Positions 2,342 through 56,412 of a DNA stretch of 64,000 bases are shown piece by piece. Source of the stretch: Candidatus Bathyarchaeia archaeon (GTDB lineage: Archaea; Thermoproteota; Bathyarchaeia; Bathyarchaeales; Bathycorpusculaceae). The stretch spans positions 110,819-174,818 of the forward strand of contig JBEKTQ010000007.1 of the NCBI GenBank assembly GCA_049515895.1, in the 5' to 3' direction. The position numbers and the translations under genes were made by a program. Under the pieces are notes generated by a model. The model was not told where the DNA came from. It was given only the letters and a program-made list of their open reading frames with translations, and searched no databases. Positions within the stretch are counted from its first letter, which is position 1, and each line of letters opens with the position of its first letter.

Positions 2342-2425
2342 ATGTCAAATAACGTGTTGAAAAAAGAAAACGTTGCCTCATGGTTCCAGAGCTTCGACTA
2401 CTTTTATTATAGTTATTTTCCTTAA
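2342..2425 (+). CDS. putative aromatic amino acid leader peptide MSNNVLKKENVASWFQSFDYFYYSYFP
   Basis: 27-aa ORF; 9 of the last 14 codons are Trp/Phe/Tyr; directly upstream of aro operon. Confidence 0.8.
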   Translation: MSNNVLKKENVASWFQSFDYFYYSYFP

Positions 2426-2463
2426 GCCCAGAACTGGAAATTTTTTTTAGTAAAGTTCTGGGC
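2426..2463 (+). promoter_or_regulatory. putative attenuator hairpin with U8 tract in loop
   Basis: GCCCAGAACT (2426-2435) / AGTTCTGGGC (2454-2463) perfect inverted repeat starting at the base after the leader stop; T8 at 2441-2448. Confidence 0.7.
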
Positions 2464-2481
2464 ACAGCATGGGTGTAGCAC

Positions 2482-3729
2482 ATGGAAAAAACTGGTCCAA
2501 ACAGAACAATTGTCGTTAAATTTGGTGGTTCTAGCCTAGCGGATCACGAGAGGCTTTTAAAAGCGGTGGTTGCCGTGGTTGATGAAGCCAAGAAGGGCAC
2601 ACGGGTCGCTGTCGTGGTATCGGCTATGGGTAAAACGACAGACGTTCTTATGACGACTGCGAAGAACGCTTCCAACGGGAAGCTGGAGAAGAAAGACCTT
2701 GACGACATCCTGTCGATGGGTGAGCGGACCAGCATCAGAATCTTCTCCACAGCGCTTAGAACCAATGGAGCAGAGTCCTGCTACTTTGACCCGATCGACA
2801 GCAACTGGCCAATAATAACTGATTCAGCCTTCCAAAACGCTAACCCGATCCTCAAGGACTGCGAAAGAAACATCCGAGAATGTGTTCTGCCACTAGTGGA
2901 AAAAGGCACTATTCCCGTCGTGGCAGGTTTCTTGGGCAAAACCAAGGACGGGAAAATCACAACTCTGGGCAGAGGTGGAAGCGACACAACCGCGTTTGTC
3001 CTAGCCGAAGCGCTTGGAGCGGACGAAATTATCTTGGTGACTGACGCAGACGGCATAATGTCAGCAGACCCAAAAATGCTCTCCAACGTCGAGCGCCTCA
3101 AAGAAATCGACGTAAACACGCTGGTGGGACTCGCCGATTCTGGAGCTAAATTCATTCACAGCAAAGCACTAAAGTACAAACCCAAAAACATTAACGTCCG
3201 CGTCATCAACCATTCCCGCGGCAGCCTGTCGGAAGAAGGCACCTTAATCACAGGTGGATTGGCCACGGAACTTGACGCTGAAATCGCGCATCCTTTCCCA
3301 GTTGCCGAAATCACCGTGATAGGAAACGGCATCTCGGCTAACCCGCAAATCATTCAGGAAATGGTTGAGGAAGCCAAGAGGCACTCGCGTCTCTTGGGCA
3401 TGTCAATGAACACAAACTCCGTAATCATTTATGTTTCAGAAGAGAAGAACTTGGAAGGGCTCTTCAACGACGTCCACAACATAACAAAGAGCAACAAGGA
3501 AACCATCGCAATGGCCGTCAAAAAAGACCTTGTTTTCATAAAAACAAGCGGCGTCGGCTTAGAAGAGACCCACGGGATCATCGGAAAGATCAGCGAAGAC
3601 CTGCGGCTCAGCGGCATAAACATTTCAGGCATACTAACAATAACATCAAGCATTCTTCTCTTTCTCGATTGGAACGAACGGGAAAAAGCCCTCAAACTAA
3701 TTAAAAACTCTTTAAGGAGCGCTAAGTAA
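2482..3729 (+). CDS. ask: aspartate kinase (aro-operon isozyme)
   Basis: KFGGSS, VVSAMG, LGRGGSDTTA motifs; C-terminal ACT-like region. Confidence 0.9.
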   Translation: MEKTGPNRTIVVKFGGSSLADHERLLKAVVAVVDEAKKGTRVAVVVSAMGKTTDVLMTTAKNASNGKLEKKDLDDILSMGERTSIRIFSTALRTNGAESCYFDPIDSNWPIITDSAFQNANPILKDCERNIRECVLPLVEKGTIPVVAGFLGKTKDGKITTLGRGGSDTTAFVLAEALGADEIILVTDADGIMSADPKMLSNVERLKEIDVNTLVGLADSGAKFIHSKALKYKPKNINVRVINHSRGSLSEEGTLITGGLATELDAEIAHPFPVAEITVIGNGISANPQIIQEMVEEAKRHSRLLGMSMNTNSVIIYVSEEKNLEGLFNDVHNITKSNKETIAMAVKKDLVFIKTSGVGLEETHGIIGKISEDLRLSGINISGILTITSSILLFLDWNEREKALKLIKNSLRSAK

Positions 3730-3738
3730 GGTGAAAAT

Positions 3739-4530
3739 ATGAACCAAGGAAAAACCCGAAGACTAAAAAGAATAATGCAGCAAGACAACCGCACAGTAAT
3801 TGTTCCCATGGACCACGGCGTAACAGTCGGACCCATCCAGGGCTTAACCAACATGCAACAAATAATCGACCAGCTTGTCAAAGGCGGGGTTGATGCCGTG
3901 CTTGTCCACAAAGGCATCGCTAAACACACTGACGCTGGAAATGTAGGATTAATCGTAATGCTGTCTGGTATGTCAAACCTCAGCCCAAACGTAAACGGCA
4001 AAGTCCAAGTCTGCAGCGTCAAAGAAGCTATACGTTTAGGGGCAGATGCGGTTTCAGTACATGTTAACATCGGCGCGCAAGACGAGGATAAAATGATTCA
4101 AAATCTTGGTAGCGTAGCTGACGAATGTGACGTTTACGGGATGCCATTGCTTGCGATGATGTATCCACGGGGACCCAAAATACAGAATGAACATGCAGCC
4201 GACGTGGTTGCTCACGCCGCACGCATAGGTGCTGAACTTGGTGCGGACATTATCAAAGCAAACTTCACAGGAAACATAGAAACCTTCAAAACCGTAGTAG
4301 AAAGCTGCCCCGTTCCGCTGGTGATCGCAGGAGGACCAAAATGCAAAACCTCCGAGGAAGTTCTGCAAACCACACGCGACGCCATTTCAGCCGGAGCAGC
4401 AGGGCTTTCCATCGGGCGCAACGTTTTCCAGCACGAAAATCCAACATTAATTGTTAAAGCGCTTTCAGCTATCGTTCATGGCAACGTAAGCGTGGAAGAA
4501 GCGCTGAAAATCGTCGGTGAAAAAGCTTGA
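3739..4530 (+). CDS. 2-amino-3,7-dideoxy-D-threo-hept-6-ulosonate synthase (class I aldolase, aroA')
   Basis: PMDHG, MMYPRG, ELGADIIK, AGG, GRNVFQ motifs; first gene before DHQ synthase II. Confidence 0.9.
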   Translation: MNQGKTRRLKRIMQQDNRTVIVPMDHGVTVGPIQGLTNMQQIIDQLVKGGVDAVLVHKGIAKHTDAGNVGLIVMLSGMSNLSPNVNGKVQVCSVKEAIRLGADAVSVHVNIGAQDEDKMIQNLGSVADECDVYGMPLLAMMYPRGPKIQNEHAADVVAHAARIGAELGADIIKANFTGNIETFKTVVESCPVPLVIAGGPKCKTSEEVLQTTRDAISAGAAGLSIGRNVFQHENPTLIVKALSAIVHGNVSVEEALKIVGEKA

Positions 4531-5570
4531 AGGAACTGTGGGTAGAAATTGAACCTGCGGCTTCACCGCAAGAAAAAGAAAACTTGCTTGGCACCGCATA
4601 TGAAAATGCAGATGTGGTCCTAGAAGGTACCCAAGCGAGCACCCGTAACGGCAAACTTGACGTGACATTTCTCGCCGAGCTTTCCGAGAAGAAGATTTCC
4701 CAAGCCAAAAATGAAGGCAGAAAAACCGCGGCCAAATTCAACATAACTGGGAAAGAAGACGAAAACCGCGCTGCTAAAGCGGCTGAACTGGGGGTTGATT
4801 ATATAATCATCAACACGTTGGACTGGAGGGTCATTCCTCTGGAGAACTTAATTGCGAAGGCGCATGGAGGCAAAAGCAAGCTTATCGCTGAAGTTGCGAC
4901 GGCACAGGACGCCAAAGTGGTTCTTGAGGCGTTGGAGCTGGGAACAGACGGTGTTCTGCTTAAAACTTCAAACCCAAATGAGCTTGCCAAAACTGTGAAG
5001 CTCGTCAAAGGGCAAATGCCTAAGGTAGCGTTGACAATAGCTAAGGTTCTGTCTATACAGCCCATCGGTACAGGAGCAAGGGTTTGCGTTGACACTGTTG
5101 ATTTGATGGTTCCAGGCGAAGGAATGCTTGTCGGCTGCCAATCTGCAGGGTTCTTTTTGGTCGAGGCTGAGGTGAACGAGAACCCATATGTGCAATCTCG
5201 ACCTTTCCGAGTAAACGCTGGACCAGCATCACACTACACTTTAACGTCGCTTCAGAGTACTCGGTACCTCTCCGAACTGAAGGCTGGAGACGAAGTCTTA
5301 ATCATAAACAGGGAAGGAAAAGTAAGAATAACGAACGTAGGAAGATCAAAAATCGAGTTCCGACCGCTCATCTTAATTGAGGCGCAAGCGGACGAAACAA
5401 AAATCAAAGCAATACTGCAAAACGCAGAAACCATCCGTCTCGTCACGCCAAAAGCCTCCAAACCCGTGACGGAACTCAAAGTAAGCGACGAGGTCTTGGT
5501 GCATTTGGCTGCAAAAGGGGGCAGGCACTTCGGCGTTTCCGTGCCTGAAGAAACGGTGATTGAAAGGTGA
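4527..5570 (+). CDS. 3-dehydroquinate synthase II (aroB')
   Basis: DWRVIPLENLIA, RVCVDT, RPFRVNAG, QNAETIRL motifs. Confidence 0.92.
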   Translation: MKELWVEIEPAASPQEKENLLGTAYENADVVLEGTQASTRNGKLDVTFLAELSEKKISQAKNEGRKTAAKFNITGKEDENRAAKAAELGVDYIIINTLDWRVIPLENLIAKAHGGKSKLIAEVATAQDAKVVLEALELGTDGVLLKTSNPNELAKTVKLVKGQMPKVALTIAKVLSIQPIGTGARVCVDTVDLMVPGEGMLVGCQSAGFFLVEAEVNENPYVQSRPFRVNAGPASHYTLTSLQSTRYLSELKAGDEVLIINREGKVRITNVGRSKIEFRPLILIEAQADETKIKAILQNAETIRLVTPKASKPVTELKVSDEVLVHLAAKGGRHFGVSVPEETVIER

Positions 5571-6250
5571 CTTTGAGAATCTGCGTTTCAATCCTACCAG
5601 AAAATAGTCTTCAAGCCCTAACGCTCATCAGGAAGGCGGAAAAAGCCAAAGCAGACCTCATCGAAGTCAGGTTGGATCGTCTTGAAACGACCACACACTT
5701 GAGGGAACTTGTCCAGAGCACAAAAATCCCCCTAATAGCAACGCACAAACTGACGAGCGAAAAAGGTTTTTTCTCCGGGACAGAGGCCCAAAGGCAACAG
5801 AGCCTTCTGAACGCAGCCGAAAGTGGTTTCGAATACGTTGACGTTGACGTGTCAAGCCCAAACCGCCAAGAAACAATCGATAAACTCAAACAGTTGGGAG
5901 TTAAACCAATCGTTTCCCACCACAAATTCGATGGCACATTAAGCCGTTCCGCTATGGAGAAGGTTCTGGAGCAGGAAATCTTGTGCGGCGCCTGCATATG
6001 CAAAATCGTTGCAACCGCCAAGAAAATCGAGGATAACCTGACGGTACTCAATTTTGTCGCTTCCCATTCAAGTAAGGCTAAACTTGTCTGTTTCTGCATG
6101 GGCGAAGTAGGTAAAGTTTCAAGGATTCTTTCACCGATGTTCGGCGCCTTCTTCACTTTTGCTTCGCTTGAACAGGGCAGCGAAACCGCGAAAGGGCAAA
6201 TCTCCATAGGCGAAATGAAGGCTGCTTTCGACCTCCTAGGAGCGCCTTAA
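5567..6250 (+). CDS. aroD: type I 3-dehydroquinate dehydratase
   Basis: EVRLD, SHH, KIVAT, FCMG..G..SR motifs; operon context. Confidence 0.9.
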   Translation: MTLRICVSILPENSLQALTLIRKAEKAKADLIEVRLDRLETTTHLRELVQSTKIPLIATHKLTSEKGFFSGTEAQRQQSLLNAAESGFEYVDVDVSSPNRQETIDKLKQLGVKPIVSHHKFDGTLSRSAMEKVLEQEILCGACICKIVATAKKIEDNLTVLNFVASHSSKAKLVCFCMGEVGKVSRILSPMFGAFFTFASLEQGSETAKGQISIGEMKAAFDLLGAP

Positions 6251-6251
6251 G

Positions 6252-7118
6252 ATGGCGGTTTCAGGAAAAACTAAAGTTTTCGGAGTAATCGGCGACCCTG
6301 TAGAGCACAGTCTAAGCCCGGTCATTCAGAACGCGGCGCTTGCAGCCTCGAAATTAGACTGCACATTCTTAGCCTTTAAAGTAAAATCCACAGCGGTCGG
6401 GAAAGCAATGGACGGTATGCGAGCGTTTGGCATTCAAGGGCTTAACGTTACAATGCCCCATAAAACCGCGGTTCTCAACTTTCTTGACGAAGTTCACCAG
6501 ACCGCCAGGGCGCTAAAGGCAGTTAACACGGTAAAGAACGAGAGCGACAAACTCTTAGGCTTCAACACTGACGGCACCGGTGCAATGTCTGCTTTGAGAG
6601 AAAACGGCGTTGAGCCAAAAGGCAAAAAAGTAATGTTGCTTGGAGCAGGTGGTGCTGCAAGAGCTATAGCCTTCGTTCTCGCGGATCAGGTGGATGAGCT
6701 TTCAATTTTGAATCGGACAATTCAGCCAGCCGCGGAGTTAGCAGATTTAATAAAGGAAAGGTTCAACAGCAAAGTTGTTGCGTACGCTCTTTCCCCGTTA
6801 ACGCTTAAGGCAAATCTAGCTGATGCTGACCTGCTGATTAACGCCACTTCAATCGGAATGAAATCGAACGCCAATAAAACCCTGATAGTCCCAAAATGGC
6901 TCAAGCCTGACTTGGCTGTGATGGACATAGTGTATGACCCGATAGAGACTAAACTAGCGAAAAATGCGAGGGCTGCGGGCGCCAAAGTGGTCAGTGGGGT
7001 TGAAATGCTGATTTATCAGGGCGCTGCGTCGTTTGAAATCTGGACTGGCAGGAAGGCGCCAATTGAAGTTATGAGGAAAGCAGCGCTTAATCACTTGCAG
7101 AAGGTGCAGAAGAGTTGA
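6252..7118 (+). CDS. aroE: shikimate dehydrogenase
   Basis: HSLSP, NVTMPHK, NTDG, GAGGAARA, NATSIGM. Confidence 0.95.
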   Translation: MAVSGKTKVFGVIGDPVEHSLSPVIQNAALAASKLDCTFLAFKVKSTAVGKAMDGMRAFGIQGLNVTMPHKTAVLNFLDEVHQTARALKAVNTVKNESDKLLGFNTDGTGAMSALRENGVEPKGKKVMLLGAGGAARAIAFVLADQVDELSILNRTIQPAAELADLIKERFNSKVVAYALSPLTLKANLADADLLINATSIGMKSNANKTLIVPKWLKPDLAVMDIVYDPIETKLAKNARAAGAKVVSGVEMLIYQGAASFEIWTGRKAPIEVMRKAALNHLQKVQKS

Positions 7119-7984
7119 CGGGGCAAGCTTCAGCTGTAGCACATGGCGCGGCGACGATTGTTAATGCAATGGCGCTCGGCAAAGGCGCCGCTTTCGGAGT
7201 TGACTTGTTCACGAAAGCGAAAGTGGAATTGACTGAAGAGCCAACAGTTGTCAAGGCAGAGATAGCTTCTGACCCGAAAGAAAGCAACGTTCTGGTGAAG
7301 AAAACCGTTGAGCGGGTTCTCCAGCGTTTCAAGATGGAAAAGAGATTCGGCGCTAAAGTTAAAACTTGGTCAAACATCCCCATCGCCAAAGGGCTCAAAA
7401 GTAGCAGTGCAGCAGCAAACGCGGTCGCCCTGGCAACCACGGCGGCGCTGGGGAAAACGCTGGATGACTTGGAAATTATCAACTTAGGTGTAGACTCCGC
7501 TTTCGACGCGAAAGTGACGGTTACTGGCGCTTTTGACGATGCATGCGCATCATATTTAGGCGGGATAATTGTCACTGATAACTTAGAACGGAAAATCGTG
7601 GGGCGGTTGGCGCTACCCGAAGATCTAGTTGTGCTTTTTCTTGTTCCTCCCCAAAAAGCTTATTCTGCTGACTCAAACGTTGAAAGGCTGAGAACTGTGA
7701 AGCCGCTTGTTCAAGTTGCTTACGAGAAGGTTTTAGGGGGTAGGTTCTGGGAGGCTTTGACGCTTAATGGTTTAATTTACTCCTCTGTCTCTGGGTATGA
7801 TCCCTCGATCGCGATTGACGCGTTGGCGGCTGGAGCAGTGGCGGCTGGGCTTTGCGGTAAAGGACCGGCAGTTACGGCAGTCACAACTAAAGACAAGGTT
7901 GATTCGGTGAAGGCTGCATTTCAAAAATTCGACGGCATAGTCTTGCAAGCCCGCTTCAACAAGGAAAAGGCAACGGTGATTTAG
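7115..7984 (+). CDS. aroK: archaeal shikimate kinase (GHMP family)
   Basis: GAATIVNA, GLKSSSAA, TGAFDDA motifs. Confidence 0.92.
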   Translation: MTGQASAVAHGAATIVNAMALGKGAAFGVDLFTKAKVELTEEPTVVKAEIASDPKESNVLVKKTVERVLQRFKMEKRFGAKVKTWSNIPIAKGLKSSSAAANAVALATTAALGKTLDDLEIINLGVDSAFDAKVTVTGAFDDACASYLGGIIVTDNLERKIVGRLALPEDLVVLFLVPPQKAYSADSNVERLRTVKPLVQVAYEKVLGGRFWEALTLNGLIYSSVSGYDPSIAIDALAAGAVAAGLCGKGPAVTAVTTKDKVDSVKAAFQKFDGIVLQARFNKEKATVI

Positions 7985-7986
7985 CA

Positions 7987-9291
7987 ATGGCGGATGTAAT
8001 CGTTAAAAAGTCTGAAAAATTAAGCGGCGAAGTATGCGCTCCCCCTTCAAAATCTTACACTCAGCGAATGCTCATCGCAGCGTCTCTCTCAAACGGGACT
8101 GGAAAAGTTTCAAATCCGCTTCTTTCCGAAGATACAGAAGCCACTTTGCGCGCGATAACCGCATTAGGTGCAGAAACGAGTTTTGAGGAAAACTGCTGGG
8201 TCATTAAAGGCGCTGTGCCTATTCAAAACGCGAAAGCACCAATTGATTGCGGAGAATCCGGAGCTACAATACGTTTCATGATACCTGTGGCTGCCCTGGC
8301 AAGTGACCCCTCAATCCTGATCTTCCGTGGGTCTCTTGACCGCAGACCCATCGAACCTTTGATTAAAAGCCTAGACGACTTGGGCGCAAAGGTTCACTCG
8401 AAAAAATTCGGCGACAAAGACGCCGTGGTTGTTGAAGGCGGGGGAATTCTTGGAGGACAAACCTCTATTTCAGGTGGTGTAAGTTCGCAGTTTATTTCGG
8501 GGTTGCTTTTTGCGTGCCCGATGGCTAAGGTTGAAACTGAAATAGTCTTCGAATCCCCATTGGAGTCCGCTGACTATGTTAAGATGACTTTGGATGTGCT
8601 TTCGAAGCATGGAATCAGAGTGGACGTTTATGGCAATTTCGAACGCATCTTAATCCCAGCCAACCAAACCTTCAAAACCATTGACTGCCGGGTGCCTGGC
8701 GACTTTTCTTCAGCCGCATTTCTTTTTGCAGCCGCAGCTGTCACCAAGTCGAAAGTGCAGGTAAACGATCTTGATTACGGGAGCGTTCAAGGCGACAAAG
8801 CAATTCTGAGCATCCTAAAACAGATGGGTGTAGCCGGCAAAGTGTGTGAAAACAGCGTTGAAATAGACGGCACGGGTAGCTCGCTTGAGCCATTAAATCT
8901 TGATGCAAAAAACATCCCTGACCTTGTCCCGGTATGCGCAGCTTTGGCATGCTTCGCAAATGGGACCTCGAAAATAACAGGCGCGCAAAGGCTCAGGCTC
9001 AAGGAATCAGATAGGCTGCAATCCCTCTATAGTGAGTTCACAAAGATGGGGGCAGAAATTGAAGTAGATTCGAACAGTCTAACCGTGAGGGGCACCTCTG
9101 CTTTGCACGGCGCCACAATTGACCCTCATAACGACCATCGTATAGCGATGGCTTGCGCGATTGCAGCTCTATGCGCGGAAAACCAAACTATTATTCAAAA
9201 TGCCCAGTGTGTCAGAAAGTCTTATCCACAGTTCTTCACTCATCTGAAACAGTTAGGAGCGGAAATTGTTGGCGGGAAATTCGACGGGTAA
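7987..9291 (+). CDS. aroA: EPSP synthase
   Basis: PPSKSY, GESGAT, SSQFISG, KESDR, DHRIAM, KSYP. Confidence 0.95.
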   Translation: MADVIVKKSEKLSGEVCAPPSKSYTQRMLIAASLSNGTGKVSNPLLSEDTEATLRAITALGAETSFEENCWVIKGAVPIQNAKAPIDCGESGATIRFMIPVAALASDPSILIFRGSLDRRPIEPLIKSLDDLGAKVHSKKFGDKDAVVVEGGGILGGQTSISGGVSSQFISGLLFACPMAKVETEIVFESPLESADYVKMTLDVLSKHGIRVDVYGNFERILIPANQTFKTIDCRVPGDFSSAAFLFAAAAVTKSKVQVNDLDYGSVQGDKAILSILKQMGVAGKVCENSVEIDGTGSSLEPLNLDAKNIPDLVPVCAALACFANGTSKITGAQRLRLKESDRLQSLYSEFTKMGAEIEVDSNSLTVRGTSALHGATIDPHNDHRIAMACAIAALCAENQTIIQNAQCVRKSYPQFFTHLKQLGAEIVGGKFDG

Positions 9292-10384
9292 AGAATTCAC
9301 AGTTACCACTTTCGGCGAAAGCCACGGCAAAGTCGTCGGCGTCATAGTGGACGGTTGCCCTGCAGGTTTGCCTCTTTCTGAAGCAGACATTCAAGCGGAG
9401 CTGGACAGACGCGTACCAGCAGATACCCGAATCGTTTCTGCAAGAATCGAAAGAGACGTGCCCAAAATTCTTTCGGGCGTTTTCAACTCGGTTACCACTG
9501 GCGCTCCAATAGCCGTGACGGTTGAGAACAAGGATGTTGACTCCGCGGATTATGAGGCAATTAAAAATCTGCCAAGACCTGGGCATGCAGACTACCCCGC
9601 AAGCGTTAGGTACGGCGGCTTTAACGATTACCGCGGAGGCGGACGCTTCAGCGGTAGAGTCACTGTGGCGTTAATAATGGCCGGAGCCATAGCGAAAAAA
9701 CTTCTGAGCCGTTTCGACGGGGACGTTTTAGCCTACACAAGAACCATAGGCAAAATCAGAAGCGACAAGAAGTTTAGCACTGAAGAAATCCGAAAGAACC
9801 GCTACGTGGCCTCTTCTAGATGCCCCGATTTGGCATGCGCAGGAAGAATGGAGGAAGCCATTGTTGACGCGCGAAAAGAGGGCGAAAGCCTCGGCGGCGT
9901 AGTTGAATGCCTTGCTCTGAACATACCAGTGGGGGTTGGGGACCCAATGTTTGATTCGCTCGACGCCGAGTTAGCCAAGGCACTGTTTAACGTTCCTGCA
10001 GTCAAGGCAGTTGAATTCGGATTGGGCTTCGAACTCATCAAGATGAAAGGCTCAGAAAGCAATGACGCCTACGTCATGCAAAACGGGAAAGTTGCTACTT
10101 CAACCGATAACATGGGCGGAATCTTAGGCGGCATATCCAACGGCATGCCAATCATCATGCGGGTAGCAATTAAACCGACGCCTTCCATCGGCCTAGAGCA
10201 GAAAACCGTTAACCTGACCACTATGGAAGATGCATCTCTCACAGTTAAGGGCAGACATGATCCATGTGTCGTTCCTAAAGCCGTGCCAGCCGTAGAAGCC
10301 GCAGTAGCCATAACGCTAGCTGACCACATGATTCGTTCTGGCTTCATACCGAAAGTCTTGGAGAGGAAAAAAATTGTTGGATGA
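9266..10384 (+). CDS. aroC: chorismate synthase
   Basis: TFGESHG, PRPGHAD, GGGRFSGR, KPTPSI, GRHDPC. Confidence 0.95.
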   Translation: MLAGNSTGKEFTVTTFGESHGKVVGVIVDGCPAGLPLSEADIQAELDRRVPADTRIVSARIERDVPKILSGVFNSVTTGAPIAVTVENKDVDSADYEAIKNLPRPGHADYPASVRYGGFNDYRGGGRFSGRVTVALIMAGAIAKKLLSRFDGDVLAYTRTIGKIRSDKKFSTEEIRKNRYVASSRCPDLACAGRMEEAIVDARKEGESLGGVVECLALNIPVGVGDPMFDSLDAELAKALFNVPAVKAVEFGLGFELIKMKGSESNDAYVMQNGKVATSTDNMGGILGGISNGMPIIMRVAIKPTPSIGLEQKTVNLTTMEDASLTVKGRHDPCVVPKAVPAVEAAVAITLADHMIRSGFIPKVLERKKIVG

Positions 10385-10637
10385 ACTCGAACTGTACAGA
10401 AAACAGGTTGATCAAATTGACGATTTGATTTTGAAAGCGCTAACTGAAAGAGTCAAGATATGCATGGCCATCGGTTTAGTAAAGAAAAAACGGGGCATCC
10501 CAATAAAAGACCTCTCCAGAGAAAACGACGTTTACAGAAAAGTAAAAGACAATTCTGCCGAATTCGGCTTAGATTCACAGAAGCTTGAGGCAATCTACCG
10601 CGAAATAGTTAATATGTGCAGTGCAGTTCAAGAGTAA
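10374..10637 (+). CDS. chorismate mutase (AroQ type)
   Basis: LELYRKQVDQIDDLILKALTERVKI...K...RE AroQ pattern. Confidence 0.88.
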   Translation: MLDELELYRKQVDQIDDLILKALTERVKICMAIGLVKKKRGIPIKDLSRENDVYRKVKDNSAEFGLDSQKLEAIYREIVNMCSAVQE

Positions 10638-10666
10638 GAAATAATCTAAAAGGAAAGTTCAAGGTA

Positions 10667-11746
10667 ATGCTCTACGAAATAAACGAGAAAGCCATAAGAC
10701 TCGAAAATCAAGGAAAGAAAATAATCCGCTTAAACCTAGGTGACCCTGACTTGGCTACGCCACCAGAAATTGTTGAGGCTGCGTACGCCGCGATGAAGGC
10801 TGGTAAAACAAAGTATTCTTCTGCTTACGGCGAGGAAAAACTAAGGCAGAAACTCGCTAAAATTCACGGAGTCAAAGCAGAAAATGTTGTTATTACTCCG
10901 GGTTCAAAATGGGGCGTCTTCGCCACTTTGTACCTGGCTATGAAGGCTAGAGGTAACATCATCATACCCACGCCTTACTGGACAGCTTACGATTTAATGG
11001 CTAAAAGTCTCGGTGCCCAAACAAGACTGCTCCGGACCGAAATGGAAGACGGCTGGAAAGTTGATTTGGGCAAGCTCGAAACTATGATTGACAAAGACAC
11101 TCGGATGATAATACTCAACAACCCGAATAATCCGACAAGCAAAGTGATGGATTCCGAGACTTTAGACGGTATAGTGGAAATAGCCAACAAGAAAGGCGTA
11201 ACCATACTCTCTGACGAAGTTTACGGTCCAATCAGTTTCATAAAGACAAAAAGCATCCTTGAATACGACGGCAACCACAATCACATTCTTTCAAACGGGT
11301 TCTCAAAAATGTTCACCATGACGGGCTGGCGAATCGGCTATATCATCGCGAATAAGGCGCTCGTGGACAACATAACAAAGCTAAACCAAATTACCATAAA
11401 CAACGTCCCAGTCTTCATACAAGAAGCAGCTCTAAAAGGGCTTGAAATGCAAAAGAACCTGACAAAAACCATTGAAAAAGAATATGAAGAAAGGGCAAAG
11501 ATAGCAAGCAAAACTTTGGCGAAAGCCGGCTTTTCCTTCACCGAACCCGAAGCACCATTCTACGTGTTCCCAAAGCTTAAAGGCTTAGACTCAGAAAAAT
11601 TCACCCTAGACCTGCTTGACAAAGGCGTTGCAGTGGCTCCCGGAACATCCTTCGGTGACTACAGAGAGCACTTCCGCATCTCTTTGACAGCTCCCCGAGA
11701 CGAAATAAAAATAGGGTTGGATAAAATCAGCGAGGCGCTCAAATGA
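10667..11746 (+). CDS. PLP-dependent class I/II aminotransferase (probable aromatic/prephenate aminotransferase)
   Basis: GDPD, NNPNNPT, SDEVY, SKMFTMTGWRIG; start set at ATG 10667. Confidence 0.85.
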   Translation: MLYEINEKAIRLENQGKKIIRLNLGDPDLATPPEIVEAAYAAMKAGKTKYSSAYGEEKLRQKLAKIHGVKAENVVITPGSKWGVFATLYLAMKARGNIIIPTPYWTAYDLMAKSLGAQTRLLRTEMEDGWKVDLGKLETMIDKDTRMIILNNPNNPTSKVMDSETLDGIVEIANKKGVTILSDEVYGPISFIKTKSILEYDGNHNHILSNGFSKMFTMTGWRIGYIIANKALVDNITKLNQITINNVPVFIQEAALKGLEMQKNLTKTIEKEYEERAKIASKTLAKAGFSFTEPEAPFYVFPKLKGLDSEKFTLDLLDKGVAVAPGTSFGDYREHFRISLTAPRDEIKIGLDKISEALK

Positions 11747-12618
11747 AAACCGCGGTTCTTGGCGCGGGAAAAATGGGTGTTTGGTTCGCAAAGTTTTGTA
11801 AGGAGAAAGGGGACAGCGTAATCCTCTCAGACAGGAAAGAGGAAAAGCTGTCAAAACTCGGAAAAGAGTTAGGTGTCGAAACTACCACTGACTTCTCGAA
11901 AGCGGTTGAAGACGCAGACAGAATCATGATTTGCGTTTCACTAAGCAGCTTCGAAGAAGTGGTAAAAAAAATCGGCTCCAGCGTTCGCGACGGGCAAGCG
12001 GTTATGGATATCTGCTCAATCAAGGAGTACCCAGTTAAGGTTATGCATGATTATATCAAGCACGGCTTGGTGTTGGGTACTCACCCCGTTTTTGGCCCAG
12101 GCAGCAAAGGCGTAAAACACAAAGCCTACGTTCTCACCCCCACAAATGCCAAGGAGGAGAAGTATGCCGAAGACTTCAAAGAGTGGCTGGAGAGTGAAGA
12201 AGCCCACGTTTTCGTAATGACACCCCAGAAACACGACCAACTCATGTCCGTCGTCCTAGGACTACCGCATTTCCTCGGATTAGTCGCTTGCGAAACCCTT
12301 CTTGATCAAAAGGCATTCACTGAAACTAAGCAATTGGCGGGGACGACTTACCGCATGCTTTTCACTTTGGCGGAAGCAACCGCGCTGGAAACTCCTGACC
12401 TTTACGCTAATTTGCAGATGAAGCTGCCTGGAATGGGAAAAATCGAAGACCTCTATATCTCCAAGGCTCAGGAATGGCTGGATTTGATCAAGCAGAAGAA
12501 TCCTCAGGCAATCATCGACAGGATGGAGCAACTTAAAGCTAAACTGCTGAAGGTTGATCCCGACTTCTCAGAATCATATGAAGTCATGTACAGAATGCTT
12601 GAAGCCACGGAGAAGTAA
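11743..12618 (+). CDS. tyrA: prephenate dehydrogenase
   Basis: GAGKMG, DICSIK, THPVFGP, HDQLMS. Confidence 0.92.
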   Translation: MKTAVLGAGKMGVWFAKFCKEKGDSVILSDRKEEKLSKLGKELGVETTTDFSKAVEDADRIMICVSLSSFEEVVKKIGSSVRDGQAVMDICSIKEYPVKVMHDYIKHGLVLGTHPVFGPGSKGVKHKAYVLTPTNAKEEKYAEDFKEWLESEEAHVFVMTPQKHDQLMSVVLGLPHFLGLVACETLLDQKAFTETKQLAGTTYRMLFTLAEATALETPDLYANLQMKLPGMGKIEDLYISKAQEWLDLIKQKNPQAIIDRMEQLKAKLLKVDPDFSESYEVMYRMLEATEK

Positions 12619-12627
12619 CGAAAACAG

Positions 12628-13248
12628 ATGCCCAAATCATTAGTCGTGAATTGTTCTCTAAAATCAAAAAACGAAGCTTTAGTTGAAGCCATCAGAGAAT
12701 TCAGCGACTGCGACGTTCTCCAGTTCAGTGATATCCATGAGGGCTACCGCGTCAAAGAGGAAGTTGATGCCGTCGTCATAAGCGGTTCTGCAGCTAGAAT
12801 AGTTAACTCTTCCGACAGACGTCTCTTTGAAGGAGTTGTCAATCTGATAAGAACCTGCGACTTGCCCACGTTGGGTATCTGCTTTGGGCATCAATTGCTC
12901 TGTTGGGCGTTCGGGGCAAAAGTTGGATCACTTGCTCAACCTGTTCTGGATCGTTTTGAGTCGGTTCGGGTGGTCGACGTCGACGGAATATTCTCTGGGT
13001 TTAGCGAAAACCTGATGGTGCCGCTGTCAGAAAACCATTACGATTACGTCCTAAAAGAAAACTTGTGCGAGGCGGGCTTTCTTTTGCTCGCGGATTCCGT
13101 CTCATGCGAAGTAGAAGCCGTTAGGCATAAAAGCAAGCCACTTTACGGCGTTCAATTTCATCCCGAACGTATAAAAGTAAAGGGCGAAACGCATTCTGGG
13201 GGTCACAAAGTTATAAAGAACTTTTACCAAAACGCGATTAGGCGATAG
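12628..13248 (+). CDS. class I glutamine amidotransferase
   Basis: LGICFGHQ nucleophile and QFHPE triad. Confidence 0.85.
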   Translation: MPKSLVVNCSLKSKNEALVEAIREFSDCDVLQFSDIHEGYRVKEEVDAVVISGSAARIVNSSDRRLFEGVVNLIRTCDLPTLGICFGHQLLCWAFGAKVGSLAQPVLDRFESVRVVDVDGIFSGFSENLMVPLSENHYDYVLKENLCEAGFLLLADSVSCEVEAVRHKSKPLYGVQFHPERIKVKGETHSGGHKVIKNFYQNAIRR

Positions 13249-21167: not shown

Positions 21168-21264
21168 TTTTCATCGTTTTCTCCTTTCAACAAATATTCT
21201 CTCGTCTTGGGAAGAAATGATTGCAAAATTAGATTCAGTTTTTTCAGAGAGGTTCCTGGGAGAA

Positions 21265-21315
21265 TCAAAGAATAAGTACCCGACGATCCCAGCTATTGAG
21301 GTGACGATCCCTCAT
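21265..21315 (-). CDS. putative branched-chain amino acid leader peptide MRDRHLNSWDRRVLIL
   Basis: 16-aa ORF ending GTA CTT ATT CTT TGA (V-L-I-L-stop) 97 nt upstream of ilvB; GAGG upstream of ATG. Confidence 0.7.
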   Translation of the reverse strand: MRDRHLNSWDRRVLIL

Positions 21316-21359
21316 TTTCGTGCCTCTTAAATACCACGTACCTTAAAGGTATCATCCAA

Positions 21360-21378
21360 GTAAACATAAAAAGTTTAC
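21360..21378. promoter_or_regulatory. inverted repeat GTAAAC-N7-GTTTAC straddling a TATA-like TTTTTAT (minus strand)
   Basis: Seen in divergent ilv/cooT promoter region. Confidence 0.4.
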
Positions 21379-21580: not shown

Positions 21581-21766
21581 ATGTGCGAATTTAACGTCAT
21601 CCTTGATGGGAAAACCCAGTTTAGAGACGTAATTTACGTTAAAGTTGAAGGTGACAACGTCACAGTCAGGAACATTTTGGGCGAATCAAAAGAGTTCAAA
21701 GGCTGCAAAATCCTCGAAGTCGACGTTAATTACACAAGGCTAGTACTCTCCTCCATAAAATCATAA
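21581..21766 (+). CDS. CooT-family nickel-binding protein
   Basis: MCE start, 61 aa, beta-rich ILGE...KI.EVD pattern. Confidence 0.75.
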   Translation: MCEFNVILDGKTQFRDVIYVKVEGDNVTVRNILGESKEFKGCKILEVDVNYTRLVLSSIKS

Positions 21767-21946
21767 TCAAGCTCGGTCTCTTAGCCTTCAAGATTTTTCA
21801 CTTACATAACTAAGGCTAATCTTTCTGACTAAAAGCTAATTCAACCCTAAACCCGGCTGCAGCCTCAAGGGAGCCTAAGCGTAACCTGGCAACAATAAAG
21901 GGCACCTATTATTTGTGACAAGAGATCACTACAAAAATTGTGGGTC

Positions 21947-27570: not shown

Positions 27571-27662
27571 GTTTTGGGAATTTGAATTTACAGGTTTAAT
27601 CATTTTTTATTCGTCACTTTATTTTTTATAGGAAATGACTTTTTCATTAATTCAATACTAAA

Positions 27663-27688
27663 TTTAAACATTGTGACTAATTTGTTAC
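27663..27688 (-). promoter_or_regulatory. operator + TATA of lysW operon (GTAACAAATTAGTCACAATGTTTAAA)
   Basis: 22/26 identical to 57034-57059 upstream of argG; imperfect palindrome TTGTRAC-N6-GTYACAA. Confidence 0.7.
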
Positions 27689-31985: not shown

Positions 31986-31994
31986 GCCGATTAC

Positions 31995-33245: not shown

Positions 33246-33323
33246 TATGTTTCGACCGCTTGTTAATATAAAAAAAGCCAAAAACGATATATTACTTGTG
33301 GTTTAATGGCAAGTGATTAAATC

Positions 33324-47373: not shown

Positions 47374-47386
47374 AGCTGAAAGAACT

Positions 47387-52537: not shown

Positions 52538-52592
52538 TTACTGTAAAGAAATGGGGCTCTAAGCCCCGAGTTTCATTCTTACGTTTTTGGCT

Positions 52593-54002
52593 CTAAATTT
52601 TGTCCAGGTTGAATGCTTCGTGAATGGCTCGGACAACTTCTTTCCCGTCTTTTTCTTTTACCACAAAAGAAATGTTCAGCTCCGACGAGCCCTGTGCAAT
52701 CATTCGGATGTTTATGCCTTTTCTTGCGACTGTTGTGAATATTTTTGAGGCTACGCCCAAAGTGCCCTTCATATTGGCGCCAACAACAGCTATTACTGCC
52801 ACGTCGTCTTCCGAAGAAATGTCGCTTACTAAGCCACCCCTATCAAGCAAGGCGATTTCAAGGCTGCTTATCGCCCTGCCTAAAACTCCTCGTCGAATAA
52901 CCATTGAAATGTTGGCTTCTGAGGCAGCGGTAGATATCATCATAACGTTAATGTTGTTTTTTCCGAGCACATCGAAAACTTTCGCGTAGCTTCCAGGTGC
53001 ACCAACCATTCCTGCGCCGCTGACGTTTAACATTGCAACTTCCCTTATCATTGCTACCGCTTTAACGACTTGTTTTGCGTTCGCATCAGGCTCTTCCGTA
53101 ATCAATGTGCCTTGGTTTTCCGGATGAAAAACACTGCGTATCCTCACTGGGACGTTTTCTTTTATGACAGGCTCTAGAGCTCTTGGATGCATGGCTTTTG
53201 CGCCAAAAATCGCCATTTCCGCAGCTTCTTGATAGCTTAATTGCGGTAGCATTTTGGCGGCTGGAACTATTTTGGGGTCGGTGGTCATAATGCCGTCTAC
53301 GTCAGTCCATATCCAGACTTCGTCAGCGCCTAATGCAACGCCTAAAATTGTTGCAGTGTAATCTGATCCACCCCGTCCAACTGTTGTCACTACTCCGTTT
53401 TGGTCCGCGGCAATGTAACCTGTAACAACTGGGACGACGCCTTTTTCAAGCAGTGGACTCAGCCTTTCTCGGATCAGGTGAGTGGTAAAGTTCATAAGTG
53501 GGTCTGCTTCCCCGAAGTTTGAGTCTGTTACGATACCTGCTTCTTTGCCTGTGAAACATTGAGTCTCCAGCTTGCGGTCTTTTATGGCTCCCCAAACAAT
53601 TGGTGCTGAAAGCCGCTCGCCGAACGATAGTACATAATCTTTTGACTTAGGCGTAAGCTCGCCAACATAGCATATGCCCGTTAACACCTTCTCGAGTTCA
53701 GCGATAGTTTTCTCTGTGATTTGAGTTACTTCTTTTTGAATCGCCTCGCTACTAATGGCCGATTTGATTGCCATCAAATGCTTCTCCGAAAGTTCCGTTG
53801 TGAAGGCTTGAATTTGTTTTTCATTGCTTCTCTTCGCTTGCTCTGCGACTTCAATCAGGCCGTTAGTTACTCCTGCTAAAGCTGATACAACAACGGCGAT
53901 TCTGCAGTTGTTCTTGGCGTTTTGCTTTATTATAGAACTTACATGGCGTATATTTTCGCCCGTTGCTACGCTGCTACCGCCGAACTTCATGACTACTTTC
54001 AT
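52593..54002 (-). CDS. ask: aspartate kinase (thr-operon isozyme)
   Basis: KFGGSS, SFGERLS, GRGGSDYTA, WTDVDG, two ACT domains (GSSELNIS). Confidence 0.93.
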   Translation of the reverse strand: MKVVMKFGGSSVATGENIRHVSSIIKQNAKNNCRIAVVVSALAGVTNGLIEVAEQAKRSNEKQIQAFTTELSEKHLMAIKSAISSEAIQKEVTQITEKTIAELEKVLTGICYVGELTPKSKDYVLSFGERLSAPIVWGAIKDRKLETQCFTGKEAGIVTDSNFGEADPLMNFTTHLIRERLSPLLEKGVVPVVTGYIAADQNGVVTTVGRGGSDYTATILGVALGADEVWIWTDVDGIMTTDPKIVPAAKMLPQLSYQEAAEMAIFGAKAMHPRALEPVIKENVPVRIRSVFHPENQGTLITEEPDANAKQVVKAVAMIREVAMLNVSGAGMVGAPGSYAKVFDVLGKNNINVMMISTAASEANISMVIRRGVLGRAISSLEIALLDRGGLVSDISSEDDVAVIAVVGANMKGTLGVASKIFTTVARKGINIRMIAQGSSELNISFVVKEKDGKEVVRAIHEAFNLDKI

Positions 54003-54004
54003 TT

Positions 54005-55048
54005 TCAGGACTCCGAGTTTTCAGATAGCATTCGATCTGCTAACTTATGTCTTATATCTAAGAGGTCTCTTAAAACTGCACTGGCAGTCTCCATACCACC
54101 AGCACCCTTACCGATAATTGTTTCCTCACCAGCATATTCCGTGTAAAAAGTCACAGCGTTAAGAACTCCGCTGACGCACAACGGGCTGTTTTTCGCTATT
54201 TCCATGGGTTTGACAGTTGACCCGTTGTGGTCAATTGACCCTAAGAGCTTAATTGTGTTTCCTCTCTTTGAAGCTTCATCAAGCGCTTCCAACGAAACCT
54301 TACGGATGCCCGTAATCTCGACATCCTTTAAGGTTATTTTCTTGTTCAATATCCAGTTTGCCAGAATGACAACTTTGCAGGCTGCGTCGAATCCGTCAAC
54401 ATCCATGGACGGCTCCCGCTCCGCGTAGCCCAGCTTCTGAGCGTTTGCCAGCGCCTCTTGGAAGGTAACACGGTTTTGAGCCATTTCAGTCAGTATGTAG
54501 TTTGTTGTTCCGTTCAGTATTCCTTTTATGGCTAAGATTTTGTCTCCGGCTAAACAGCGCTTAGCGAACTCAAGGACTGGTGTTCCACCGCCGACGGTTC
54601 CGCTGAATCGGAGGCAAACATTGTTGTATTCTGCTAGTTCTGTGAGGGCGGGCATTGCTAAGGCTAATGGTCCCTTGTTGGTTGTGACAACATGTTTTCC
54701 TGTTTGGAAGGCTTTTGTTATGTGCGACAGGGCTGGTTCAGCGTTTTTGATATTAACGGGCGTTACCTCAACAACCACTTCTGCCTCAACAGACTCGATA
54801 ACATCTGACACTGACATTCCAGGGTGACCAAACTCGGGGTCTTTAGAGATTGGAAATCCCCTTTGCCTAATCTCCCCCAATTTTTCGGGGCTTAAACCTC
54901 TTGGGTTTATGACGGCTCCGTCTATGTCAGCTATGGCGACGATTTTTGGGTTAAACCCGTAATCCTTAACTTTTTCTAGGGATCTGTTCGCAAGAATAGT
55001 TGTTACGCTTTTCCCAACTACTCCGAAGCCAACTAAGATTATCCTCAT
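54005..55048 (-). CDS. hom: homoserine dehydrogenase
   Basis: GFGVVG, HVVTTNKG, TVGGGTP, GILNGTTNYIL, GKGAGG.ETA. Confidence 0.95.
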   Translation of the reverse strand: MRIILVGFGVVGKSVTTILANRSLEKVKDYGFNPKIVAIADIDGAVINPRGLSPEKLGEIRQRGFPISKDPEFGHPGMSVSDVIESVEAEVVVEVTPVNIKNAEPALSHITKAFQTGKHVVTTNKGPLALAMPALTELAEYNNVCLRFSGTVGGGTPVLEFAKRCLAGDKILAIKGILNGTTNYILTEMAQNRVTFQEALANAQKLGYAEREPSMDVDGFDAACKVVILANWILNKKITLKDVEITGIRKVSLEALDEASKRGNTIKLLGSIDHNGSTVKPMEIAKNSPLCVSGVLNAVTFYTEYAGEETIIGKGAGGMETASAVLRDLLDIRHKLADRMLSENSES

Positions 55049-55055
55049 TTTTTGT

Positions 55056-56306
55056 TCACCTAGCCAGAATCACTTTTTGCTGTTTTAACCCCAGAGCATG
55101 CTCAATAGCCAACATATCAGCGTCGACTTCAACCGGTTTTTCGCATTGCTTTATCGCGGTGTCGGGGTCTTTTAATCCATGTCCAGTGGTAATACAGACA
55201 ACCCGTTCGTCTTTACCTATGACGCCACTTTTAACCAGCTTCTTTAACCCTGCGATTGACGAGGCACTTGCAGGCTCTACAAAGATCCCTTCAATTCTAG
55301 CCAACATTTTCTGTGCATCCAAGATTTCGTCGTCGGTAACGGTTTCGGCGGTGCCGTGGGATTCGTGGATGGCGTTAATGGCTTTTTTCCAGCTAACTGG
55401 AGCACCAATTCGGATGGCAGTGGCGACTGTTTCCGGATGTTCAACAGGAATGATTTTGTCGCTGTTGGTTTTGATTGCTTGTGCTATGGGCGCCGAACCA
55501 GTTGCTTGAATTCCGGTCATTTTTGGCAATTTTTTTATGAATCCAAGTTTGTAGAATTCAGTCAAGCCTTTCCAGACAGCACTTATGTTCCCAGCGTTGC
55601 CGACGGGTATGATAATTCTATCGGGGGCATCATTGTTCAGCTGCTCACAGATTTCGTAGCCCAATGATTTTTGTCCTTCAATACGGAACGGGTTAATTGA
55701 ATTAAGCAGGTAAATGTTCTTATGTTTCTCGGCCAACTTCAAGACGAATTCTAGGGATTGGTCGAAGTTCCCCCGTACTTGCAAGACTTTCGCGCCGTGA
55801 ATCATAGCCTGCGCCAATTTACCATAAGCAATCTTGCCCGACGGAATCAGAACAGTACACTTTAATCCTGCCCTTGCAGCGTAAGCCGCTAAACTTGCGC
55901 TAGTATTCCCAGTTGAAGCGCAAATTACGTGCCTGGCTCCAAGCTCGACGGCTTTTGTCACGCCGACTGTCATGCCCCGATCTTTGAAGCTGCCCGTTGG
56001 GTTCTCGCCTTCATTCTTGACGTATACTTCCTTCAGCCCTACTTCGTCGCCTAAGCGTGAAGAACGATGCAAGCCAGTCCCACCTTCATTAAGAGTAACA
56101 ACGTGCGCAGTTTCATGAATGGGCATGAAGTCGCGGTACCGCCAAACAGAAAGTGACTTTGTTTTCCAGTCGCTGCCTTTGAGAGTTTGAGCTAGCTCTT
56201 TAAAGTCAAATTTTATTTCTAGGATATCTCCACATTTCCTACAGAAGTAAACGATATCGTCAATGTCATATTTTGTTTTGCAGTTAATGCATTCTTGGTG
56301 TACCAT
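55056..56306 (-). CDS. thrC: threonine synthase
   Basis: NPTGSFKDRG, ASTGNT, PVGNAGN, EPASA, TGHGLKD. Confidence 0.95.
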   Translation of the reverse strand: MVHQECINCKTKYDIDDIVYFCRKCGDILEIKFDFKELAQTLKGSDWKTKSLSVWRYRDFMPIHETAHVVTLNEGGTGLHRSSRLGDEVGLKEVYVKNEGENPTGSFKDRGMTVGVTKAVELGARHVICASTGNTSASLAAYAARAGLKCTVLIPSGKIAYGKLAQAMIHGAKVLQVRGNFDQSLEFVLKLAEKHKNIYLLNSINPFRIEGQKSLGYEICEQLNNDAPDRIIIPVGNAGNISAVWKGLTEFYKLGFIKKLPKMTGIQATGSAPIAQAIKTNSDKIIPVEHPETVATAIRIGAPVSWKKAINAIHESHGTAETVTDDEILDAQKMLARIEGIFVEPASASSIAGLKKLVKSGVIGKDERVVCITTGHGLKDPDTAIKQCEKPVEVDADMLAIEHALGLKQQKVILAR

Positions 56307-56322
56307 GTTTTTAGCCTCTCCT

Positions 56323-56412
56323 TTAGATGAGCCCCTTAGCTAAGTGAGGCAATGAAGGCTGCTGCTGAACTATCTGTTTAGGCATTATTAATTTTGTCGT
56401 TTGCATTGCCAT
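56323..56412 (-). CDS. possible thrC leader ORF MAMQTTKLIMPKQIVQQQPSLPHLAKGLI
   Basis: Starts at TAATG overlap with upstream stop, ends at TAA directly before the thrC SD (AGGAGAGG). Confidence 0.3.
   Translation of the reverse strand: MAMQTTKLIMPKQIVQQQPSLPHLAKGLI

Follow-up and report, generated by a model that had tools for sequence, protein, structure and literature searches.

Translated leaders of two kinds are candidate ribosome-based amino-acid sensors in Bathyarchaeia

We analysed a 64,000-nucleotide stretch of a Candidatus Bathyarchaeia archaeon genome (contig C7, positions 110819-174818; 3.18 Mb in 53 contigs), hereafter the window, which carries the aro, ilv, lys, thr and arg biosynthetic operons. 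Short translated leaders of two different kinds, one upstream of the aro operon and one upstream of the ilv operon, together with at least two more elsewhere in the genome (upstream of hisG and trpE), probably make up a lineage-wide set of sensors through which the ribosome of Bathyarchaeia responds to amino-acid supply. The observations from which we argue are the open reading frames (ORFs) themselves, their conservation and codon patterns, two RNA helices (P1 and P2) in the aro leader, and open alternative frames in the leaders of the second kind. Close relatives of the genome are uncultured Candidatus Bathyarchaeia of peat, bog and soil, from SPRUCE, Stordalen and Microflora Danica samples.

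The aro operon (2482-13248, plus strand) comprises, by family searches, an aspartokinase, aroA' (ADH synthase), aroB' (dehydroquinate synthase II), aroD, aroE, archaeal aroK, aroA, aroC, chorismate mutase, an aminotransferase, tyrA and an amidotransferase, a set that covers the common pathway and the Tyr/Phe branch. Ahead of it, at 2342-2425 on the plus strand, lies an ORF of 27 codons translated as MSNNVLKKENVASWFQSFDYFYYSYFP, with W14, F15, F18, Y20, F21, Y22, Y23, Y25 and F26, and ending P27-UAA. Nine of its last 14 residues are Trp, Phe or Tyr (P=6.9e-6). Since the operon contains chorismate mutase, tyrA and an aminotransferase, the leader is better read as a Tyr/Phe sensor than as a Trp sensor. 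When all ATG-started ORFs of 9-45 codons ending 10-150 nt before a gene were ranked across the genome (n=713), this leader came first, and it also had the most stable downstream fold. A scan by composition only, with no positional constraints, was too noisy and placed it at about rank 23; the genes downstream of other top hits look, by eye only, like membrane proteins or a transposase.

Equivalents of the aro leader precede the aspartokinase gene at 54/54 Bathyarchaeia loci from public genomes (aspartokinase identity 64-93%) and are also found in 20 genomes of the same genus. They extend to family f7 and to f32, a family outside the order, where the tail reads ...AFFDSYYYFYFS before the stop. 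No aro leader was found at the Nitrososphaerota, Halobacteriota and Methanophagales matches of the public-genome search, and no aromatic leader of at least 20 codons was seen in family f26, also outside the order. At locus L258 of this GC-rich family, the aspartokinase frame is open for 60-90 codons upstream of the conserved N-terminus.

Across relatives the aro leaders have 25-28 codons, the last part of which holds 7-10 Tyr/Phe codons. The N-terminal half is free in sequence and varies slightly in length, and the ATG always lies 9-14 nt past a conserved block. Among 52 distinct C-terminal blocks, the aromatic positions are filled by TAT, TAC, TTT and TTC only, with frequent synonymous and Tyr/Phe swaps; the tail keeps a strict T-W-Y three-base periodicity, and one spacer codon amid the aromatic codons varies freely (R/S/H/G/Y/F/Q). 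Whereas the Tyr/Phe codons do swap, the AGC-UUC of the preceding Ser-Phe shows no synonymous change. A putative B recognition element (BRE)/TATA element, GCTTATATTT, lies at 2295-2304 on the plus strand, and relatives keep a TATA-like block about 30 nt upstream of arm A (seen as NAYIFW/RLYFL translations); this element would put the transcription start a few nucleotides before arm A. At the level of sequence, these patterns confirm the aro leader as a genuine, conserved ORF of the translated type.

Two helices flank the regulatory codons. The 5' arm of P1, UCGAAGCU (2331-2338, plus strand), lies just upstream of the leader AUG, and its 3' arm, AGCUUCGA (2390-2397, plus strand), is the invariant AGC-UUC-GA of the Ser-Phe-Asp codons, so that P1 encloses the AUG and the variable codons; the S-F-D conservation is accounted for by this pairing. 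Hairpin P2 (2426-2463, plus strand) is a 10-bp stem with arms GCCCAGAACU (2426-2435) and AGUUCUGGGC (2454-2463) and a free energy of -17.7 kcal/mol (z=-4.06). It begins on the first base past the leader stop codon, and the gap is 0-1 nt in the sequences inspected or aligned. Using RNAalifold and pair counts on 30 diverse sequences, we found 97% of P1 cells and 100% of P2 cells paired, 98.7% overall. One-sided changes in either helix all yield G-U in the sense strand, and P2 shows compensatory changes of AU to CG (4 sequences), CG to GC (4) and CG to AU (2). The covariation exceeded that of 500/500 shuffles, and slid controls paired at 45% or less. Sense-strand G-U changes and compensated pairs argue that the element is an RNA and not a DNA operator.

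The same region might nevertheless be thought to act as DNA, with TTTTATTAT as a TATA box, the 10-bp inverted repeat as the operator of a dimeric repressor and the ORF as incidental. The T/A-richness of the Tyr/Phe run, akin to an archaeal TATA box, and the near invariance of the inverted repeat within the genus would suit such a reading. We consider it very improbable, given that the ATG-initiated frame is retained in more than 70 genomes despite its variable N-terminal part, and that three-base periodicity with TAC/TAT and TTT/TTC swaps, including variants such as TTTTAC for TTTTAT, argues against a TATA box at the run. The G-U changes would be mismatches in a DNA palindrome, the compensatory doubles speak against it as well, and a separate TATA-like box is kept upstream of the leader. 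The P2 palindrome occurs once in the genome, which rules it out as a regulon-wide operator.

The loop of P2 consists of an A-run followed by U8 (2441-2448). In relatives this U-tract ranges from U4 to U8, and in several f7 genomes U4-U5 stands directly 3' of the stem, followed by GGAG, giving the hairpin-then-U-run arrangement of a terminator, which the genus studied here does not show. On the sense strand of the genome, runs of at least six T have a density of 3.0/kb downstream of genes, against 1.3/kb upstream of them and 0.32/kb within coding sequence, and T8 is present in 14/1999 upstream regions. Enrichment after genes, depletion within them and the rarity of T8 upstream fit oligo-U as a termination signal, and the aro U-tract is thus a candidate attenuator of the archaeal oligo-U type, in which FttA/aCPSF1 assists termination.

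Masking of P2 by the ribosome is, in our reading of the sequences, the model that best fits the conserved aro features, namely aromatic codons against the stop, P2 in contact with that stop, and a U-tract associated with P2. Under a shortage of Tyr-tRNA or Phe-tRNA, the ribosome would stall at the last aromatic codons and mask the 5' arm of P2; P2 could then not fold, and the aspartokinase-shikimate-tyrA operon would be expressed. When Tyr and Phe are ample, the ribosome would terminate and depart, P2 would fold, and transcription would end at the U-tract and/or aspartokinase initiation would be hindered. As to how P2 might act, termination at the U-tract falls somewhat short of an even chance, an effect on translation is considerably less probable, and some other action would take up the remainder.

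Several observations weigh against this reading of the aro leader. The U-tract is merely U4 in many relatives and is missing at locus L086. No bacterial-type terminator was found in 2180-2500 of the window, and in this genus the U-tract lies within the P2 loop, so that P2 cannot serve as one. No conserved antiterminator pairing was found in the leader, just the two independent helices. Occlusion of the aspartokinase ribosome-binding site by the leader RNA, a route that a preliminary description of the window had proposed as Shine-Dalgarno (SD) occlusion, proved weak when tested here (accessibility 0.47, rising to at most 0.57). Moreover, reasoning from simple coupling could even lead one to expect regulation of the opposite sign. 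Two other arrangements were rejected. An antiterminator formed by arm A and the P2 5' arm breaks, by inspection, in species with variant covarying P2 arms; frameshifting, bypass or read-through from the leader into the aspartokinase is contradicted by unconserved alternative frames, scattered stops and a variable last sense codon. A search of the window against Rfam gave nothing at the gathering threshold, only noise at E<=10, and no match to a leader family.

The second kind of leader precedes the ilv operon (21167-13713, minus strand; ilvB, ilvN, leuC, leuD, leuB, leuA and pheA by family searches). On the minus strand, a conserved TATA box, CUUUUUAUG/U (21365-21373), and a conserved SD, AGAGG (21323-21327; GGAGG in other families), located 7 nt before the leader AUG, are followed by a 16-codon ORF, MRDRHLNSWDRRVLIL (21265-21315), with two GGGAUCGUC modules. 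Its sixth codon is CUC (21300-21298), and we propose CGG_GUA (21282-21277) as a slip site. The +1 frame (21171-21281) is open for 36 sense codons plus a stop, contains no ATG, GTG or TTG, and ends at the UGA (21173-21171) of cgAUGAaaaAUG, 3 nt before the ilvB AUG (21167). The 5' untranslated region (UTR) also holds a conserved block of an A-run and U4, GAAAAAACUGAAUCUAAUUUU (21225-21244, minus strand), a candidate U-tract terminator. Such an A-run/U-run block recurs in the ilv, his and aro 5'UTRs.

Sixteen genomes of the same genus retain the TATA box, the AAGAGG SD and the 16-codon ORF with a fixed stop position. The first 13 codons are near-invariant as nucleotides, with GGGAUCGUC occurring twice; the last three are variable (LIL, LVL, QLL, QLF, LFC, LFL, PRN, HFY and FIL), and the branched-chain enrichment is not significant (5/15, P=0.28). 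The preliminary description had regarded both the aro and the ilv ORFs as strong leaders matched to the products of their operons. That holds in full for aro (9/14, rank 1/713, conserved), and for ilv the conserved ORF stands while its product-matched tail does not. Conservation thus confirms the ilv leader as a real sequence element, although not through its Val-Leu-Ile-Leu tail.

What is kept in the ilv leader is a core of AUG-AGG-GAU, a spacer codon and CGG_GUA in this genus, and GGAGG-N6-8-GUG AGG GAU NNN CGG GUA... (MRDxRV...) in the order's other families. Families f1, f5, f11 and f12 keep the SD, the start codon and the module. Among 33 distinct leaders with UTRs of 144-189 nt that are otherwise unalignable, 31 have a +1 frame from CGG_GUA whose first stop lies no more than 6 nt from the ilvB AUG, against a chance of about 0.10 each in shuffled UTRs. 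The frame ends as AUGA, UGA-N3-AUG or AUGxxUGA. The +2 frame stops early, and 13 of the 33 +1 frames lack any ATG, GTG or TTG.

To look beyond the window, we located hisG (contig C2) and trpE (contig C8) with Pfam models. hisG is preceded by a mini-ORF, M(M)RDCVHSRRLRSLRAIQTV with its stop, and the sequence [AT]TG AGG GAT TGC GTT CA[TC] (MRDCVH) is present in 8 leaders, two from the same genus and six from other genera, with both CAT and CAC in use as the cognate codon. The unit GAU-UGC-GUU-CAY occurs twice, the second copy being in the +1 frame with a stop 0-6 nt after it. All 8 leaders have an open stretch of 48-58 codons in the frame reached by a second +1 shift, and its stop lies 5 or 10 nt beyond the hisG AUG (null expectation 0.02-0.11 each).

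Upstream of trpE, a palindrome, a TATA box and an SD are followed by ATG [AG]GG [GA]AT NNN NUU UGG. The arrangement start-N4-NUU_UGG, one base out of the TrpE frame (TrpE is the +1 frame), was found at 37/38 unique loci in 5 families; the Trp codon is at position 6, and the slip codon is NUU_U at 37/37 module-bearing loci. The TrpE frame has no canonical start at 20/37 loci. At loci L227 and L230 it opens only at the UUU, immediately preceded by UAG, which fixes the site of the shift. Immediately before the trp promoter AAGCCTTAAATAA there is a conserved palindrome, GTACAxTTxTGTAC (locus L174 at C8:68380-68450, outside the window), and a protein operator may therefore act there besides the Trp-codon leader. 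The preliminary description had predicted His-rich and Trp-rich leaders for such operons; we found instead short M-R-D/N leaders with one cognate codon at position 6.

Taken together, the ilv, his and trp leaders share a kind II pattern: AUG-AGG-GAU (or GGG-AAU), then a single codon as spacer, the slip codon and finally a cognate codon, which in ilv is GUA (Val) or CUC (Leu), in his CAU/CAC and in trp UGG. In all three, AGG-GAU resembles an SD about 3 nt upstream of the slip codon, and the cognate codon is exactly one codon past the slip codon. The his and trp leaders carry one cognate codon each, with no cluster. A single cognate codon together with an alternative frame that reaches the enzyme gene points to +1 frameshifting and away from classical attenuation. 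While the A site waits on a hungry cognate codon, which would be slow under starvation, the tRNA in the P site could slip by +1, as it does in E. coli prfB. In trp, the shifted frame would be TrpE itself; for ilv one slip, and for his two successive slips, would lead into a start-less open frame that crosses the whole 5'UTR and ends on the ilvB or hisG AUG. A ribosome crossing the UTR would switch the operon on, through coupling and the avoidance of premature termination. For both kinds of leader, stalling, slippage, termination and the direction of regulation are what we infer from these patterns.

Searches for further members gave little. The word [AG]TGAGGGA[TG] has 28 intergenic matches in the genome, of which only those of his and ilv resemble leader ORFs. 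Short M-R-D/N/E ORFs gave 81 genome-wide hits, mostly chance, and were rejected as further leaders, as were two hits with Trp at codon 6 that we followed up, which are ordinary SD-plus-ATG gene starts. In a genome scan for the module with an open alternative frame, ORFs lying out of frame within genes confounded the result.

Some features of the kind II leaders tell against frameshifting. In ilv module 1 the codon CAC_CUC is not slippery, while re-pairing at CGG_G is plausible; the his slip from GUU to UUC (GUU_C) re-pairs poorly; and 20/33 ilv +1 frames hold some ATG, GTG or TTG, though at unconserved positions. The long (+2) his frame has a conserved UUG at nt 9-11 that might be a start of its own, and in families f7 and f4 the UUU is directly preceded by AUG or GUG, an alternative start for the TrpE frame. 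A protein- or ligand-binding RNA would also account for the invariance of the ilv and his modules at the nucleotide level. Finally, phylogenetic non-independence inflates the conservation counts; the ilv, his and trp patterns still recur in families with unalignable UTRs.

The alternative starts raise the possibility that the long ilv and his frames and TrpE are independently initiated, at the UUG of the his module, at AUU/AUC or at the f7 AUG before UUU, with no frameshift and with the short leader merely competing. There is a small chance that this is so. It accommodates the his UUG and the f7 and f4 starts, but 13/33 ilv and 20/37 TrpE frames lack ATG, GTG and TTG, the only properly spaced SD serves the zero-frame start, and the TrpE frame of L227 and L230 opens at UUU only. 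It also leaves aside the placement of the cognate codon exactly one codon past the slip codon in all three operons.

The invariance of the modules, with few synonymous changes, bears on another account, which takes the ilv and his elements for structured RNAs, or for tandem protein- or ligand-binding sites, and the short ORF and open frames for by-products. The repeats GGGAUCGUC and GAUUGCGUUCA, each present twice, are spaced 21 and 19 nt apart, about two helical turns, and in most his (L175-L184) and ilv (L021-L036) leaders a CCCUC segment 30-100 nt downstream could pair with the GAGGG with which the leader starts. We regard this account, too, as unlikely. Binding sites would not explain a stop-free frame of 35-58 codons ending on the gene AUG in 31/33 ilv and 8/8 his leaders, nor the identical module at trpE, where the frame is that of TrpE, and no Rfam family matches.

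For all four leaders one may also ask whether they are functional micro-peptides or constitutive upstream ORFs that tune translation rather than amino-acid sensors. Conservation of the peptide motifs SFDY..FY (aro) and MRDCVH (his) would be expected of such peptides. At the aromatic positions of the aro leader, however, the codon class alone matters, and in 4/4 cases (Tyr/Phe, Val/Leu, His and Trp) the codon that is conserved is one for the product of the operon that follows, while other peptide positions drift. We therefore judge that explanation improbable and favour amino-acid sensing by the ribosome. The broader picture, to which we give an even chance, is that Bathyarchaeia, and possibly other archaea, use a repertoire consisting of a Tyr/Phe leader with a ribosome-masked hairpin and a portable six-codon +1-frameshift module for Trp, Val/Leu and His; the two his modules in series would then act as a squared, ultrasensitive check.

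Two further leaders proposed in the preliminary description, both weak, did not withstand comparison with relatives. The supposed thr leader (56323-56412, minus strand) is not a real feature: it has 2 Thr in 28 codons (P=0.42), is absent from relatives, and its ATG lies upstream of the sole conserved element, a TATA-like AAAATTAATAAT. The supposed lysW leader, MKKSFPIKNKVTNKK with its stop (27600-27647, minus strand), is Lys-rich (6/14, P=2.9e-4) and falls within an A-rich 5'UTR that is conserved, but only about 5/13 relatives have its ATG and the ORF is not conserved. Both are chance ORFs. What is conserved before lysW is a palindrome, TTGTAACAAATAAGTCACAA, together with a TATA box and the A-rich UTR. 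In this genome the palindrome reads TTGTAACAAATTAGTCACAA (27671-27690, minus strand) and adjoins the lysW TATA box TTTAAAT, as a putative operator. The palindromic operator that had been noticed before the arg genes is borne out: GTAACAAAAAAGTCACAA (57034-57051, plus strand), before argG-argH-carAB, has the same motif, TGTAAC-N6-GTCACA. Two more intergenic copies of the loose motif occur at C4:139754 and C19:23619, and nothing comparable was seen before thrC. That the lysW and argG promoters have a palindrome in common speaks for control of the lys and arg genes by a transcription factor, the two promoters being candidates for sharing a protein operator.

Altogether, the lineage-wide system of translated leaders that had been envisaged beside transcription-factor control is upheld for aro, ilv, his and trp, whereas its cognate-rich form fits aro only. 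Cognate-codon enrichment, the check put forward with that idea, singled out aro (1/713), and the thr and lysW ORFs fell on the very ground for rejection that it had named, enrichment no higher than in control upstream regions. Ribosome-based sensing in this lineage is thus likely to consist of one classical-looking leader plus a frameshift-type module and not of a set of cognate-rich attenuators.

The remaining genes of the window give the setting of these elements. The aspartokinase that heads the aro operon (2482-3729, plus strand; SD-like GGGUG and AUG at 2471-2484) fits an aspartate-semialdehyde-dependent archaeal shikimate route, and is one of two paralogues, the other (52593-54002, with ACT domains) lying in the thr operon. 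A chorismate mutase ORF of 87 aa (10374-10637) occupies an apparent gap between aroC and the aminotransferase, which makes the aro operon continuous into the Tyr/Phe branch. Family searches assigned the lys operon (27603-21947, minus strand) to lysW, lysX, lysY, lysZ, lysJ and lysK, the thr operon (56306-52593, minus strand) to thrC, hom and the second aspartokinase, and the arg operon (from 57101, plus strand) to argG, argH, carA and carB. A gene for an Lrp/AsnC regulator (27853-28263) is divergent from lysW. In some genomes thrC directly follows a gene that resembles thrB by C-terminal sequence (by eye). Directly upstream of thrC and divergent from argG, a protein with DUF7523 and an ACT domain (56412-56990) could be a small amino-acid-binding regulator. 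Between the end of lysK and the ilv promoter, a small plus-strand ORF at about 21583-21770, beginning MCEFNVILDGK (by eye), may encode a small metal-binding protein. Genes at 31155-34109 have NAD_synthase/QueC-like ATP-pyrophosphatase, nickel-insertion (PF01969) and AIR-carboxylase-like domains, a group that resembles, by its domains, a larE/larC/larB nickel-pincer cofactor cluster.

To our knowledge, leader-peptide attenuation of amino-acid biosynthesis has been regarded as a bacterial invention, and our full-text literature searches found no report of it in archaea. The consulted portions of a 2016 review of frameshifting (PMC5009743) mention no trpE, no frameshift case in amino-acid biosynthesis and no natural use as an amino-acid sensor. 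Likewise, a review of archaeal recoding (PMC8211752) describes no natural frameshift that senses an amino acid for a biosynthetic operon; there, the sole demonstrated cellular programmed frameshift is the -1 event in fucA1, +1 frameshifting is merely suspected, in a virus, and a Mg chelatase frameshift is of unstated direction. Here, an abundant, uncultured class of soil and peat archaea has a textbook-looking Tyr/Phe leader, and three further operons have a different, very compact module for which hungry-codon +1 frameshifting is the best explanation. If true, this would amount to a naturally occurring frameshift switch for amino-acid sensing, of which we found no description, and to a leader-peptide control system in Archaea. 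The leader and module sequences are short and concrete enough for testing in reporter systems. There is also a bearing on annotation: TrpE here has no callable start codon, the leaders are below the size limit of gene callers, and long 5'UTRs conceal start-less frames.

In bacteria, leader-peptide transcription attenuation is exemplified by pheL, trpL, hisL, leuL, thrL and ivbL of E. coli. As in those attenuators, an SD-led short ORF lies directly before a biosynthetic operon (aro, ilv, his and trp), and the aro leader has a run of end-product codons, with helices flanking the regulatory codons, and ends F-P-stop, as pheL does. Unlike them, the leaders described here belong to an archaeal host, and no mutually exclusive terminator/antiterminator pair was found. 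The genus studied here has no GC hairpin with a U-run; the stop abuts the hairpin and the U-tract is in the loop. In addition, there is no Rfam leader match, and the codon run occurs in aro only.

Translational attenuation at ermC and cat and single-hairpin attenuation of the pyrBI type resemble what we propose for aro, in that a ribosome at the end of the leader ORF physically blocks a downstream hairpin. Their signal is an antibiotic or a coupling that depends on UTP, whereas the aro signal would be the supply of Tyr/Phe-tRNA, and the SD of the aspartokinase lies outside the aro hairpin. Control of the lysW cluster in Sulfolobales is by transcription factors of the Lrp/LysM type. The lysW promoter of the window is similar in having a palindromic putative operator that overlaps it and an adjacent Lrp/AsnC gene, and the motif also precedes the arg genes; the operator sequence differs in being lineage-specific, and binding is here a prediction.

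The +1 frameshift site of E. coli prfB (RF2) reads AGG GGG UAU CUU UGA C. The kind II module has in common with it an SD-like element, a 3-nt spacer, a slip codon whose tRNA could re-pair in trp (NUU_U), an A-site codon that would be slowly decoded and a product that would be made only after the shift. It departs from prfB in that the presumed slow codon is a sense codon of the pathway's own amino acid and not a stop, and in that codons 5-6 of a mini-ORF form the site. The new frame of ilv and his encodes no conserved protein and would only deliver the ribosome to the AUG, and his appears to need two shifts. Frameshifting at a hungry codon is the mode of action of the CUU-AGG-C site of yeast Ty1. 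It was also the subject of the experiments of Gallant and Lindsley, as cited in PMC8211752. In the mechanism that we propose for kind II, as in Ty1 and in those experiments, the P-site tRNA would slip while the A site awaits a scarce aminoacyl-tRNA; unlike the kind II module, these cases concern the expression of a transposon or laboratory constructs.

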